Origin: Thermodesulfobacteriota bacterium
GTDB taxonomy: Bacteria > Desulfobacterota_D > UBA1144 > Nemesobacterales > UBA2774
Length of the DNA stretch: 64,000 nt
Direction: 5' to 3'
Assembly: GCA_965216785.1 (NCBI GenBank)
Contig: OZ244197.1
Location: 960,001-1,024,000, forward strand
A model generated the notes under the pieces. It did not search any database, was not told the DNA's origin, and was given only the letters and a program-made list of their open reading frames with translations. A program made the translations under genes and the position numbers. Below are positions 11,850-40,963 of this stretch, one piece after another (positions within the stretch are counted from its first letter, which is position 1; every line of letters begins with the position of its first letter).

Positions 11850-11878
11850 TGTTAAGATTGTGTTAAGAGAGGATTAAA
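11850..11878 (-). promoter_or_regulatory. Pho box of the pst operon (three 11-bp-spaced direct repeats)
   Basis: Minus strand TTTAATC-ctct-CTTAACA-caat-CTTAACA about 50 bp upstream of pstS; OmpR/PhoB-type periodicity with a TTAACA core. Confidence 0.8.
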
Positions 11879-11982
11879 CGCCAATTAACTGTTTGGGCTA
11901 ATAAATAGCGGGCATGTTATGATATATTTTATAAGAAACAACTCAAATGCCCATTATTATAGAGGTAATCCGATTTAATATT

Positions 11983-25636: not shown

Positions 25637-25667
25637 GTGGGCATAAGAGGATGAATTTTTAATATAA

Positions 25668-25753
25668 CCGAAAAGGCAAACTATCCGAAAGGATAGGACG
25701 CAAAGCCGACGGCCTAAGGGCTAGATGGAGCCTAAGGCGGCAGGGTTGCCGAA
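25668..25753 (+). ncRNA. c-di-GMP-I (GEMM) riboswitch aptamer
   Basis: GGCAAAC-TATCC-GAAA-GGATAG-GACGCAAAGCC...CCTAAG...GGCAGGGTTGCCG: GNRA P2 loop, CGCAAAGCC junction and GGTTGCC 3' end. Confidence 0.92.
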
Positions 25754-25848: not shown

Positions 25849-27042
25849 TTGGACATGAAAAGAGGATGGAGAATAAATAATAAGCTTTCTATATATACGC
25901 TTGGCATAGTCGGGTTTGTGCTTCTCTGTATAGTTTCGTTTCCAAAAGAGACGCTTGCCAATACCTATTACTATACAAAAACAGAAGACGGCACATTTCA
26001 CTACACCAATATCAAGCCTAAATCTACTGAATATAAGAGCGTAGATAGCCCTTGGGGAGTCCTTAAAACAGCGCCAAGAGTAAATAGAATAAAGAAAAGC
26101 GGTAGCTTTAAGTACTCCAGGGTTTACGATCGGCATATTCACAGCACAGCTAACTGGTACGGGGTAGACCCACTGCTAATTAAAGCGATTATAAAGGTAG
26201 AGTCCGATTTTAACCCTCATGCGGTTTCATCCAAGGGGGCCATGGGTATGATGCAGCTTATGCCCGGCACGGCCAAGAAAAACGGGGTTAAAGACGCGTT
26301 TGACGCGCAAGAGAACATTGAGGGCGGGGTCAGGTATTTCAGTAAGCTCATGCTCATGTTCAACCACAGGATCACTCTCGCTCTGGCAGGTTACAACGCC
26401 GGTGAAAACGCTGTTATTAAATACGGCTACAAGATCCCTCCTTATCCCGAGACCATAAATTATGTTGAAAAGGTCTATATACACTACGACAACCTCAGGA
26501 ACAAAAAGGTGAAAAGAAATATAGACTCCATGGTTGCGGAAAGATTCGATAAGAAGCCGATTCAAACCGTCGCGAAAACAAGCAATAATAATAGGACCAA
26601 AAAGAAAACCAGCTCTTTTGTTTATGTTGAGACGCTTGAAAGCGCAACAGTGGTTACAAACACGACCCGGAAAAATATATCTCCTCAAAAGCCAAAGGTT
26701 ATCTCAAAGCCTACGGTAAGAGCAAAATCAAGCACTGCCAAGTCCCCTGTTTATGCAGATGCCAATATAGACACTAACGCTAGCAGCCCTCCTGCCAAGG
26801 AGGGGCGTTATACTGTTCAAATTGCCTCATTCCCACAAGCCCGCTTTGCAAAAGAGATGGAAGCTGAGCTAAAGGCAAAGACATATCCTGCCTATGTTCA
26901 GAAAACCGATATACCCGGCAAGGGCACGTGGTATAGGGTAAGAGTAGGCCATTTCGGCACGAAAGAAGAGGCGCGCAGATTCGGTGATACAATAGTAAAT
27001 AAAGTGTCTTCGGTAAAATCCATATATGTCGCTATGAATTAA
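25849..27042 (+). CDS. Lytic transglycosylase (SLT) with C-terminal SPOR domain
   Basis: N-terminal TM; AIIKVESDFNPHAVSSKGAMGMMQLMP, ALAGYNAGE, ETINYV; SPOR YTVQIASF...WYRVRVGHF; start TTG 25849 or ATG 25855. Confidence 0.92.
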   Translation: MDMKRGWRINNKLSIYTLGIVGFVLLCIVSFPKETLANTYYYTKTEDGTFHYTNIKPKSTEYKSVDSPWGVLKTAPRVNRIKKSGSFKYSRVYDRHIHSTANWYGVDPLLIKAIIKVESDFNPHAVSSKGAMGMMQLMPGTAKKNGVKDAFDAQENIEGGVRYFSKLMLMFNHRITLALAGYNAGENAVIKYGYKIPPYPETINYVEKVYIHYDNLRNKKVKRNIDSMVAERFDKKPIQTVAKTSNNNRTKKKTSSFVYVETLESATVVTNTTRKNISPQKPKVISKPTVRAKSSTAKSPVYADANIDTNASSPPAKEGRYTVQIASFPQARFAKEMEAELKAKTYPAYVQKTDIPGKGTWYRVRVGHFGTKEEARRFGDTIVNKVSSVKSIYVAMN

Positions 27043-31533: not shown

Positions 31534-31751
31534 CTTTTTAAATCTCATAAAAAGAAGATGTTTATGCCAACCCCCTGTAATTAAAGAAAAAATAGAAAAG
31601 TGGAAGGATTGTGGATAAAATATCACAAATATTTCATATTAAATCTCTAACCCTCTGAAATCATTGACATATATGTCTTAACAAAGTCTTAATAAATGTG
31701 GAAAAATCTATCCACAAGTGTGGATGTTTCACGTGAAACATGTGAATTGGA
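31534..31751. other. Probable chromosomal replication origin (oriC)
   Basis: AT-rich gap with DnaA boxes TGTGGATAA (31610, perfect), TGTGGAAAA (31697), CTATCCACA (31708), TGTGGATGT (31719); adjacent parS; next to mnmE. Confidence 0.65.
31725..31740. promoter_or_regulatory. parS centromere-like site
   Basis: Perfect 16-bp palindrome TGTTTCACGTGAAACA, the canonical parS consensus. Confidence 0.93.
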
Positions 31752-33155
31752 TTATTTGCCTACGCAGAACTTGCTGAATATTCTGCCTAGTACGTCTTCT
31801 GTTGTAACTTCACCGGTTATTTCTCCCAGTGAGTTTAGGGCGCCCCTTAAGTCGAAGGCTGAAAATTCGGGAGACTCCCCGGCTTGAAAGGTTTTAAGAA
31901 AAGTCTTTAGGCTTTCTTGGGATGTTTCTAGTGCGCTTTTGTGTCTTAGCTCTGTAAGAATGATTTCGCCCTCTTTAGAGTAGTTTTGGCGGCTTATTAA
32001 TGAATCTCGTATTATATCTTTAAGCTCGTCTATTCCGCTATTATTTTTTGCTGAAGTTCGTGCTATTCTGTTGCTGTCTATATACTCTACAAGCTCTTTT
32101 TCGCTGACATTGAGCCCCAAATCAGATTTGTTGATGACTAAGACGGCATTTTTATCTTTTAACTCTTTCAGAACTTCTATATCGTCTTGATCAAGCTCCG
32201 CGCTGCCGTCAATTACCGCTATCAGCAGCTCGCCCTCACTTGCTTTCTTCTTTGCCAGCTCTATCCCAGTTTTCTCTACATGATCTGTTGAAACCCTTAT
32301 CCCCGCCGTGTCGATTAACTTCAATGGGATACCTCTTATATCAATGCTCTCTTCTATGAAGTCACGTGTTGTCCCGGGATGTTGACTTACAATAGCCCTC
32401 TCACGCATTAGCAGACTGTTCAGCAGGCTGGACTTTCCGACATTTGGCTTTCCAAGTATTGTAGTGATTACACCGTATTTTAATATCCTGCCTTCGTCAT
32501 ATGTAGCCAAAAGCTTGCCAATTTCAAAGATTAATCCCTCAGCTCTAGATACTATGTCTTTTTTGACTAGGGGATCGATGTCCTCCTCAGGGAAGTCCAC
32601 CTGTGATTCTATTTCTGCTAGTAGGTCGAGTACAATGTCCTTAAAACCGCCGATTTTCGTGGATAGGATACCTTCTAGTTGCATCTCGGCCTGCTTTAGG
32701 CCCTCTTCGGTCTGGGCGTTTATTATATCAACAACAGCCTCTGCCTGTGTAAGGTCCATTTTACCGTTTACAAATGCTCTTAGTGAGAACTCTCCCGGCT
32801 CCGCAGGTCTTGCTCCATGCTTAAATAACAGCTCCACTATCTTTTTCGGAACCAGATATCCCCCGTGCGAGTGAATTTCTGCGACATTCTCTCCCGTGTA
32901 GGAATTCGGGGCCTTCATTAGTACGCAAAGTACCTCATCTACTGCTTTACCGGCGTCCGGGTCTTGAATAATTCCATGGTAAAGACGGCGAGACTCCATT
33001 TTACTTGAGTCGATGTCAGCGTCGCCTTTGAATATTTTGTTAATAATTTCAGTTGTTTGCGGGCCGCTTATGCGTATTACAGCTATCCCGCCCTCACCCT
33101 GAGCAGTCGCGATTGCCGCTATTGTATCCTCGTTAGGAAGTATATTTCTATTCAT
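31752..33155 (-). CDS. mnmE: tRNA modification GTPase
   Basis: DTIAAIAT, GKPNVGKSS, GTTRD, DTAG, NKSD, FCVGK. Confidence 0.98.
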   Translation of the reverse strand: MNRNILPNEDTIAAIATAQGEGGIAVIRISGPQTTEIINKIFKGDADIDSSKMESRRLYHGIIQDPDAGKAVDEVLCVLMKAPNSYTGENVAEIHSHGGYLVPKKIVELLFKHGARPAEPGEFSLRAFVNGKMDLTQAEAVVDIINAQTEEGLKQAEMQLEGILSTKIGGFKDIVLDLLAEIESQVDFPEEDIDPLVKKDIVSRAEGLIFEIGKLLATYDEGRILKYGVITTILGKPNVGKSSLLNSLLMRERAIVSQHPGTTRDFIEESIDIRGIPLKLIDTAGIRVSTDHVEKTGIELAKKKASEGELLIAVIDGSAELDQDDIEVLKELKDKNAVLVINKSDLGLNVSEKELVEYIDSNRIARTSAKNNSGIDELKDIIRDSLISRQNYSKEGEIILTELRHKSALETSQESLKTFLKTFQAGESPEFSAFDLRGALNSLGEITGEVTTEDVLGRIFSKFCVGK

Positions 33156-39340: not shown

Positions 39341-39823
39341 TTATGCTACCGCTCTTTTTCTTCTGATTGCTACCAGGCCGATTATCCCAAGTACTCCGGC
39401 CATTGCAATAAGCCCCCATTCGGAAAGCGTAGGGACAGGGCGTATAAATTTTAGATTACACGAGGCAACTACTAGCTCCTGGCAAACCTCAGACTGAAGG
39501 TCTGAAAGTATAAGTATTTGGCCCTTTGCTCCTTCTGCGAATAATGAGCAGGCTGGGTTGCCCTTGAAATATTGAACACTAAAGTCGAGGACCTCCTCTT
39601 GAAAAACGGCGACTCTAGTGGTCGACAATACATACTCGGTACCGGCACCTAGCTCACCACCCGGGCATAATTCGGCTAGGATATCGTTACCCGAGAGTCC
39701 GTTAGATAGCACTGCAGTTTCGCACGGGCAGTCAGACCCTTGTGGCGGTAATGGTTCAGAGTAAACGTAAGCAGGTACGAACAGAACTGCTAATAATAAA
39801 ATCAAACTAAAGTGTTTTGTCAT
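39341..39823 (-). CDS. IPTL-CTERM surface protein (exosortase H substrate)
   Basis: Signal peptide, six Cys, C-terminal VPTLSEWG plus TM helix plus RRKR. Confidence 0.92.
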   Translation of the reverse strand: MTKHFSLILLLAVLFVPAYVYSEPLPPQGSDCPCETAVLSNGLSGNDILAELCPGGELGAGTEYVLSTTRVAVFQEEVLDFSVQYFKGNPACSLFAEGAKGQILILSDLQSEVCQELVVASCNLKFIRPVPTLSEWGLIAMAGVLGIIGLVAIRRKRAVA

Positions 39824-39941: not shown

Positions 39942-39977
39942 AAAAAAGGGGCAGGTAAGGTTGAGGACCTGCCCCTT
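39942..39977 (-). terminator. Orphan Rho-independent terminator
   Basis: Minus strand AAGGGGCAGGT-cctcaacctt-ACCTGCCCCTTTTTT; no CDS upstream on this strand. Confidence 0.85.
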
Positions 39978-40022
39978 AAGAGCACGGAGTTGATAGGGTA
40001 TGTATATATAATCGCAGCAGAT

Positions 40023-40051
40023 TGTTAAGCCCGTATGAACAGAGGATTAAG
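40023..40051 (-). promoter_or_regulatory. Putative second Pho box
   Basis: CTTAATC-ctct-GTTCATA-cggg-CTTAACA; shares TTAATCCTCT and the terminal CTTAACA in identical register with the pstS box. Confidence 0.55.
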
Positions 40052-40204
40052 GAGTGATAAATTTTGAGCTCTTTTTAGGTGTTATAAATTGTCCCATAAA
40101 TTAAGTGAGTTACGGGTGGTGTTGACTCCAAAGTTTGACATTTGAGTTAATTTAAATCCATACTACTGTCTCGTAATAATTCAAGTTCAATTTCTACGCC
40201 AACT

Positions 40205-40963
40205 ATGAAGGTATGCACGCTTGCAAGCGGGAGTTCCGGGAACTCTCTTTTAATCGAGACAGAGGAGACAAAGATACTCGTCGACGCGGGAATCAGTCTC
40301 AGGCAAATTAAGTTAAGGCTCGAAGTTCTAGGGGTGAATATCGAAGATATAGACGGCGTAATAGTGACTCACGAGCACAGCGATCACACGGCGGCTCTGC
40401 CGAGGCTAAAGACCCCCGTTCACGTAGTTTCCTCAACCACCCACTTATGGAAGGACAAGCTTCACAGTATGGTCGAGTTTACAAGCGACTGTGCTTTTTC
40501 GATAAGAGACCTGATGGTAACACCCTTTTCCGTACCGCACGACGCCCTTGACCCCGTTGGTTTTACGATCGAGTCCGAGAAAGGCGAGAAGATCGGGCTT
40601 GTTACAGACATAGGCTCAGTGACAGGGCTTGTGAAGGAGAGTCTTAAAGGGTGTAATATACTTGTGATTGAGTTTAATCACTGCAGCGATATTTTGCTTT
40701 ATAGCCACTATCCCTGGGACCTTAAGCAGAGGATAAAAGGCAGGCTCGGACACCTATCGAACATTCAGGGGGCGGAGCTCCTTCAAAACCTTCTGCACGG
40801 GGGGCTAAAGCACGTGGTGCTTGCGCACCTCAGCCAGGTAAACAATAAGCCTGAGGCCGCATTTAAAGCTGCAAGAGAGGCCCTTACAAGGTTTGGTGCG
40901 GAGAATGATGTAAGTGTGTGTGTTGCGCCGAGAAAAACTATAGGAGAGGTTTTAGCGATTTGA
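40205..40963 (+). CDS. MBL-fold metallohydrolase (YycJ/WalJ-like)
   Basis: ASGSSGN, THEHSDH, HDA, GHLSN, LAHLS. Confidence 0.9.
   Translation: MKVCTLASGSSGNSLLIETEETKILVDAGISLRQIKLRLEVLGVNIEDIDGVIVTHEHSDHTAALPRLKTPVHVVSSTTHLWKDKLHSMVEFTSDCAFSIRDLMVTPFSVPHDALDPVGFTIESEKGEKIGLVTDIGSVTGLVKESLKGCNILVIEFNHCSDILLYSHYPWDLKQRIKGRLGHLSNIQGAELLQNLLHGGLKHVVLAHLSQVNNKPEAAFKAAREALTRFGAENDVSVCVAPRKTIGEVLAI

Follow-up and report, generated by a model that had tools for sequence, protein, structure and literature searches.

The window analysed here is a stretch of 64,000 nucleotides, G000:C1:960001-1024000, from a 3.12-Mb genome (one contig, 92% complete). Comparisons were made within family f1, a Dadabacteria-type family of uncultured bacteria represented by 33 genomes in genera g1-g7. 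Of interest is a minus-strand feature that lies between a divergent gene for an MBL-fold hydrolase and a gene for an IPTL-CTERM protein. The elements of the locus, and the reference Pho box found in the same window, are as follows.

40205..40963, plus strand: MBL-fold hydrolase gene (PF12706), divergent, the constant upstream neighbour by synteny
40023..40062, minus strand: Pho-box array of four 7-bp units at 11-bp spacing, with unit starts at 40062 (weak), 40051, 40040 and 40029; score 20.7
40008..40016, minus strand: putative extended -10 (TG-C-GATTAT), 10 bp past the last TTAAC unit
39942..40001, minus strand: predicted small RNA of about 60 nt, with conservation starting at CATAC; covariance model R1
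39978..40001, minus strand: 24-nt arm, predicted to be single-stranded (unpaired probability about 0.9 or more), near-invariant in genus g2
39980..39989, minus strand: core CUCCGUGCUC, with 10/10 positions invariant in 11 host loci; contains the anti-Shine-Dalgarno motif CUCC
39984..39985, minus strand: GT dinucleotide, the breakpoint of serine-recombinase elements in relatives (junctions in G099 and L342); an empty attB in G000
39942..39977, minus strand: intrinsic terminator with an 11-bp stem (39977-39946), a 10-nt loop and a U run to 39942
39341..39823, minus strand: IPTL-CTERM protein gene (PF18203), the variable downstream neighbour, outside the RNA unit; replaced in relatives by other, often convergent, genes
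11850..11889, minus strand: reference Pho box of the pstS operon; pstS (TIGR02136) and phoU (TIGR02135) score over cut-off

Anatomy of the predicted RNA

On the minus strand the units of the array read CTTAATC (40051-40045), GTTCATA (40040-40034) and CTTAACA (40029-40023), with the weaker fourth at 40062-40056. A preliminary description of this DNA had placed the box in the register of the pstS Pho box, which is confirmed for three units at 11-bp spacing and a weak fourth. It had also read the -10 as TTATATA, but the conserved register gives GATTAT (40013-40008) with TG before it, and A40012 and T40008 (positions 2 and 6) are invariant in all 11 aligned loci. The RNA would start at A40001, 7 nt past the -10. 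The short unique sequence noted earlier ahead of the terminator corresponds to the arm, and the core within it (also written CUCCGUGCU or CTCCGTGCTC) is without change over 11 aligned loci from four genera. It is likely the pairing seed.

The 11-bp terminator with its U run also holds: the hairpin folds at -19.5 kcal/mol (z -4.4; 0/200 shuffles equally stable) and its stem covaries. It is missing from a simple terminator scan because its loop exceeds 8 nt. Both arm and loop had been described as anti-Shine-Dalgarno-like; the CUCC of the arm is invariant, but the loop, CCUCAACCUU, differs in every relative and is rejected as such an element. The next gene had been credited with a promoter of its own downstream of the terminator. 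A sigma-70-like site is listed at 39896-39868, but it is a consensus match only, one of 6 such sites where 4.2 are expected.

The RNA had been thought unannotated, and nothing in Rfam 15 exceeds its gathering threshold at the locus (the best model, sbrA, reaches 18.4 bits vs 45). No second copy was found in G000. Of nine sequencing runs listed, the assembled contigs of four were compared with the window. Those of three RNA or RNA-like runs include none over the locus, which is uninformative and not a negative result; the only real RNA run yielded a pair of short pieces, both in other parts of the window, and the two RNA-like runs gave no piece. A fourth run of unrecorded kind, which may be the source of this DNA, covers the window without a change. 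Elsewhere in the window, at 25665-25753 on the plus strand, there is a c-di-GMP-I riboswitch (78.6 bits) ahead of a 395-aa gene at 25855.

The Pho box and the Pho regulon

In a genome-wide scan of G000, 28 positions showed three CTTAACA-like units spaced 11 bp apart. The top sites precede pstS and genes for a phosphate-selective porin, a metallophosphoesterase and a PmtA/OlsG-like methyltransferase; one more stands ahead of a gene clustered with those for an OlsB-like acyltransferase and PAP2. The porin gene is divergent from a phoB/phoR-like pair, and its box scores highest. Such a set of pstS, porin, phosphoesterase and lipid-remodelling genes is typical for phosphate starvation. Is the similarity of the candidate box to these promoters at chance level, the outcome that would have told against the preliminary description? 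A scoring matrix was trained on the five promoters with the candidate excluded; the candidate is the best non-training site and ranks 7th of 752,390 intergenic positions in G000, the six higher being training sites. With a four-unit matrix it ranks 16th, and most of the higher rows are shifted views of the training promoters. The orthologous box in G018 is the second-best locus in the 2.37 Mb of that genome scanned.

The regulator gene of the phoB/phoR-like pair lies at G000:C1:831815-832504. The best model of this regulator is PhoB (TIGR02154), at 239.9 bits and thus below the curated cut-off of 296.2; the sensor kinase has its best matches among PnpS/PhoR-type models, also below cut-off. A PhoB-like regulator gene is present in 32/33 family genomes. 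The motif in G000 agrees with the box of the cyanobacterial regulator SphR, PyTTAAPyPy(T/A) (PMC4195498, cited, like the other papers below, from excerpts).

The box stands in place of a -35, about 10 bp ahead of the -10, and this arrangement is kept in relatives: over 11 aligned loci the TTAA units hold phase while the spacers vary. Box and RNA core also occur together. Among 30 regions upstream of the MBL-fold gene, which come from kin genomes and are not independent, the eight that contain the core all score between 13.7 and 20.7, and 21 of the 22 that lack it do not exceed 5.6. The box is strand-specific and points away from the MBL-fold gene, with opposite-strand scores of at most 8.7.

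Other Pho-like sequences came to light. At window ~31665-31730, shortly before mnmE at 33155, two units (score 15.2) run into words that we take to be DnaA-box-like and parS-like; this is possibly an origin region with phosphate input. A four-unit array at G000:C1:1115790 (+), close to a GDPD gene and 285 bp ahead of the gene that follows, scores 25.5, above the candidate's own four-unit score, and could drive another short transcript. At G000:C1:2868600 (+) and in L243 an array kept in G018 stands ahead of a gene for a predicted secreted protein, likely an unrecognised Pho gene. Several arrays occur in the lipid-remodelling cluster at G000:C1:1040000-1047500 (L060), which encodes OlsB-like, acyltransferase, glycosyltransferase and PAP2 proteins. 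G001 (L002:850-1150) keeps a Pho box scoring 22.1, but in place of the RNA an unrelated, repeat-like sequence leads up to the following gene.

Conservation and serine-recombinase elements

By nucleotide search, 8 of 41 genomes, G000 among them, have the locus, with the match centred on the RNA in the six g2 genomes; reading the regions upstream of the MBL-fold gene added G007 and G022. Conservation of box and terminator in relatives had been suggested as a check, and 12 of the 33 family genomes carry the RNA: 1/3 in g1, 9/10 in g2, 1/10 in g3 and 1/1 in g6, with none in g4, g5 (0/7) or g7. It lies nearly always next to the same MBL-fold gene. Only the end of that gene is matched in G002, and none of it in G012, so the locus may be unassembled in these two genomes. 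At least three further intact copies come from metagenomes.

In the 11-locus alignment the phase of the Pho units, the A and T of the -10 and the core are kept, and the terminator loop is free to vary. An independent MAFFT alignment of the stem has 8 of 12 consensus pairs changed on both sides, with 88% of cells paired, as against 39-66% in slid alignments; 0-5 of 500 shuffles were as high. A model-fitted alignment agrees on the stem, but it is biased towards the model and includes three non-native rows. When R1 was run over 101 genomes of the order under strict filters, full-length strong matches came from 11 genomes, almost every one a row on which the model had been trained, and from G098 with an eroded terminator; all belong to family f1. 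Matches of R1 outside the family (E 1e-4 or weaker, mostly terminator-only, the best in G038 lacking the core) were rejected, and 9 of 17 exact matches, which come from unrelated lineages, were treated as chance. Among the 119 listed matches scored in metagenome and viral scans, 115 have no box. A 13-nt intergenic match to the arm, also without a box, occurs at L166:1501 (G018:C16:672519) and represents chance or a secondary att-like site.

In some relatives the core is a point of entry for mobile DNA. In G099 the 5' half of the host sequence stops at ...CAACTCCGT, where foreign DNA begins, and about 26 kb on the foreign DNA meets the host 3' half and terminator. The insertion falls at the GT within the core, and the arms of the foreign DNA repeat each other in inverted orientation (GTTGTACTATGTA and its complement). 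At the end next to the host 3' half is a 617-aa gene of the Resolvase/Recombinase/Zn-ribbon type. Between this junction and the recombinase gene lies a complete, inverted and diverged copy of the RNA with four units, a -10, the arm and a new terminator. The box of this copy scores 13.9, and its one arm change is in the last base of the core; the first nine core positions remain invariant once it joins the alignment. The copy has no gene to lead. A second left junction, L342, has the same GT and a related arm, and its upstream sequence is the same as that of intact L368. Right-junction relics without a recombinase ORF are found in G018 and G003, each with an intact copy at the home locus; the genomes with junctions keep an intact RNA copy in three of three cases (G003, G018 and G099). 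With halves joined at a shared dinucleotide, inverted-repeat arms and a large serine recombinase (LSR) gene at one end, the core has the characteristics of an LSR attB and is predicted to be one. A search for element arms allowing two mismatches stayed at control level.

A sister element elsewhere in G000, whose recombinase is 63% identical to that of G099 and whose far-end genes are shared, interrupts a PF01902 gene at about codon 190; the rest of that gene lies roughly 67 kb off. Beside its recombinase is a full inverted PF01902 copy, 66% identical. As read from these sequences, elements of this family bring a spare of the gene that they disrupt; the one in G099 brings the RNA gene together with its promoter. 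The spare RNA copy, which rests on one complete element, is evidence of function independent of motif statistics. A tentative and rather doubtful extension is that the islands cut the seed of a host phosphate-starvation sRNA, supply their own PhoB-controlled and slightly altered copy, and so might gain control of a post-transcriptional branch of the Pho response, in a lineage where Hfq was not found.

The contents of these elements are varied. The complete element (L099/L100, G099:C48:300-26450) carries, from ORF starts, a PAS kinase/regulator-like pair and a multicopper-oxidase-like gene, with DUF3102 and HTH genes at its far end. The 67-kb island of G000 (G000:C1:1149100-1217350, outside the window), which splits the diphthamide-synthase-like PF01902 gene, has metal efflux and resistance-type, restriction-type and TIR-like genes, again from ORF starts. 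The relic cargo is heavy-metal efflux-like in G018, read from ORFs, and consists of two blocks in G003.

Targets, mechanism and relation to known RNAs

What might the RNA pair with? A target search had been proposed as a check, and the tests comprised a whole-arm duplex ranking over 2,960 called genes, seed lists, pattern searches and a G000-G018 comparison. The last has low power, being limited to two genomes, 1,546-1,737 orthologue pairs and about 80% of G018, and all are limited by gene starts from a simple caller. Of 60 shuffles that leave only CUCC in place, 23-42 reach the RNA's count of conserved start-region sites; over whole genes it has 11 conserved sites, vs 2-49 for shuffles. The role in trans assigned in the preliminary description can only be inferred, because no conserved target rose above shuffled controls.

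Across 1,546 orthologous start regions, 9-bp sites in both G000 and G018 occur only in the genes for a DUF4410-like lipoprotein and for amtB, two candidate targets that are unproven leads. The lipoprotein gene (G000:C1:410989, minus) has YAYGGAG at its Shine-Dalgarno in 10/10 g2 genomes and AGYACG just past the Shine-Dalgarno in 3/3 g1 genomes, and the site is absent in the 14 non-carriers read. It is missing in the carriers G022 and G007, yet present in G001, which lost the RNA. The pairing with amtB (G000:C1:449824, minus) spans 12 bp in G000 and 9 bp in both G002 and G018; it is bulged in G021, G097, G099 and G012, and weak or absent in G003, G009, G015, G001 and G008. The amtB leaders (L274-L280) share a CA-rich sequence conserved in genus g2, preceded by a conserved TTGGC...TTGC that is presumably a sigma-54-like promoter. 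Other candidates fell away: one gene of 563 aa contains a perfect 15-nt match, which is found again (13 nt) in the same genus only, and sites in dnaJ, an erpA-like gene and a metal-binding-protein gene are not kept in G018. The start regions of phoB, phoR, pstS and phoU show no strong pairing (-9.8 to -14.0 kcal/mol vs a genome mean of -13.4).

What is established at the level of sequence is the anatomy (a Pho-type array replacing the -35, a -10, a predicted unpaired arm and a terminator), its conservation, and the use of the site for integration by an element with a complete spare copy. The proposal of an independently terminated Pho-regulon RNA of about 60 nt agrees with the co-occurrence of box and core, the stem covariation, the often convergent downstream gene and the spare copy. 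It is highly probable that the feature is a transcribed, Pho-controlled RNA gene. Under phosphate starvation, a phosphorylated PhoB-like regulator would bind the array and recruit sigma-70 polymerase, giving an RNA of about 60 nt from A40001 to the U run at 39942. The core, with its CUCC, would then pair over GGAG ribosome-binding sites of mRNAs and repress their translation. Since Hfq was not found, KhpA/KhpB, or no chaperone, would assist the pairing; G000 has two KH_KhpA-B genes over cut-off. The mechanism as a whole, a conserved non-coding gene of about 60 bases likely activated by PhoB and likely repressing translation by core-RBS pairing, is favoured with some reserve. Against it stand the patchy presence of the RNA (1/10 in g3, 0/7 in g5) although nearly every family genome has the PhoB-like gene, the strong box that G001 keeps without the RNA, the below-cut-off score of the regulator, and target sites no more numerous than in shuffled controls.

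The invariant arm of a PhoB-driven RNA might instead bind a protein, or sponge another RNA (an sRNA or tRNA fragment), and leave ribosome-binding sites alone. This would explain why 24 nt are near-invariant when no conserved mRNA target is detectable, and it is in keeping with the lack of hits to Hfq and ProQ in G000 (92% complete, one contig). We regard it as unlikely. GGA motifs are absent from its sequence, and a search of G000 likewise did not find CsrA, which sets the RNA apart from sponges of the CsrB/RsmZ type; the arm is predicted to be unstructured, with an anti-Shine-Dalgarno CUCC complementary to GGAG; and, among the matches listed, no intergenic perfect complement of the 10-nt core exists in G000 other than the locus itself.

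Does the box serve a protein gene? It might act through read-through into the IPTL-CTERM gene, with arm and hairpin as leader or attenuator, or by control of the divergent MBL-purB operon. The IPTL-CTERM gene is indeed co-directional in G000, and G001 has the box and a same-direction downstream gene where arm and terminator are lost. The downstream gene varies between genomes, however, and is convergent in G021, G009, G015, G018 and L041, which argues against a leader and for a stand-alone RNA gene (40001-39942). The orientation of the box, its absence from 21 genomes that keep the MBL-fold gene and an element copy that leads no gene also make control of a protein gene quite improbable.

It is very improbable that there is no functional RNA at all, the arm being kept as an attB recombination site and the hairpin as a terminator of convergent neighbours. 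The core is the crossover point of the elements and the site a hot spot for inserted cargo, but a Pho array, a -10 and a strand-specific U run would then be superfluous, yet every aligned locus, like the element copy, has them in register, and hosts with insertions retain an intact copy in every case (3/3). A small peptide on either strand is scarcely credible and largely refuted: a plus-strand GGAG does stand about 10 nt ahead of an ATG in most homologues, but that frame has three codons in G000, nine in G003 and an immediate stop in G018, G021 and G015, and the RNA strand has no AUG, as the earlier remark that no ORF fits had implied.

How does the putative PhoB-driven RNA compare with known ones? 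PhoS of Bacillus, a 66-nt sRNA induced by phosphate scarcity via the Pho response regulator, acts at a ribosome-binding site; it sits in the phoPR 3' UTR and activates phoP (PMC11522486). The candidate is likewise short, putatively induced by a Pho regulator and putatively RBS-acting, but unlike PhoS it is a free-standing gene far from phoBR, with no Rfam match and no strong pairing to phoB, phoR, pstS or phoU. PsiR1 of Synechocystis is a phosphate-stress RNA driven by an SphR Pho box, with tetrameric arrays and 3-nt spacers (PMC4195498). The candidate's array is of the same motif type; PsiR1, unlike it, is about 500-600 nt long, belongs to a 5' UTR and possibly codes for peptides, and its boxes lie 61-182 nt upstream, whereas the candidate's last unit is 10 bp from the -10 (PMC4195498). 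Haloferax sRNA132 is also phosphate-linked (PMC6560208); Pseudomonas sRNA1060/1062, unlike the candidate, act upstream of PhoB in the pathway (PMC12506140). A 2026 review includes PhoS, and no mention of PhoB was found in its excerpts (PMC13501541).

Hfq-independent, minimal seed-plus-terminator sRNAs with C-rich anti-Shine-Dalgarno seeds include RsaE/RoxS and RepG. Like these, the candidate has an unpaired, conserved C/U-rich stretch able to cover GGAG, then an intrinsic terminator; its sequence, lineage and regulator differ, and its pairing with a target is putative only. By this comparison, the RNA resembles regulator-driven seed-plus-terminator sRNAs and belongs to none of the PhoS, PsiR1, sRNA132 or sRNA1060/1062 families.

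The sdsR (ryeB) locus is a phage attachment site with repeated integration of foreign DNA (PMC3333887). Unlike sdsR, the candidate is cut inside its presumed seed by a large serine recombinase, and the element brings a second gene with a putatively regulated promoter. Islands with replacement sequence in attP, or encoding a homologue of the target gene, are known (PMC10111431), and most LSR clusters are site-specific, with elements that use single target genes (PMC10083194). The targets in the excerpts of these two papers are tRNA and protein genes, whereas the spare in the present case is an inverted copy of a free-standing, putative regulatory RNA gene, and a single element family carries spares for an RNA gene as well as for a PF01902 protein gene. 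The open-licence literature yielded no account of the candidate RNA, of an LSR island with a whole spare sRNA gene or of a phosphate-starvation sRNA for Dadabacteria, although supplementary attachment-site tables could hold these sites.

The mobile element provides genetic evidence, of an unusual kind, that this RNA of uncultured bacteria has a function. The G099 element yields a defined recombinase and an attB/attP pair, and its layout, an inverted spare of what is broken, suggests that spare copies beside island recombinases could reveal unannotated regulatory RNAs. The regulators known for phosphorus metabolism in bacteria are nearly all proteins (PMC11522486), and few phosphate-starvation sRNAs have been described. 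The RNA is very likely a previously undescribed sRNA family in the Pho regulon, and in a little-studied lineage where Hfq was not found, this family offers a short RNA arm of the Pho response.
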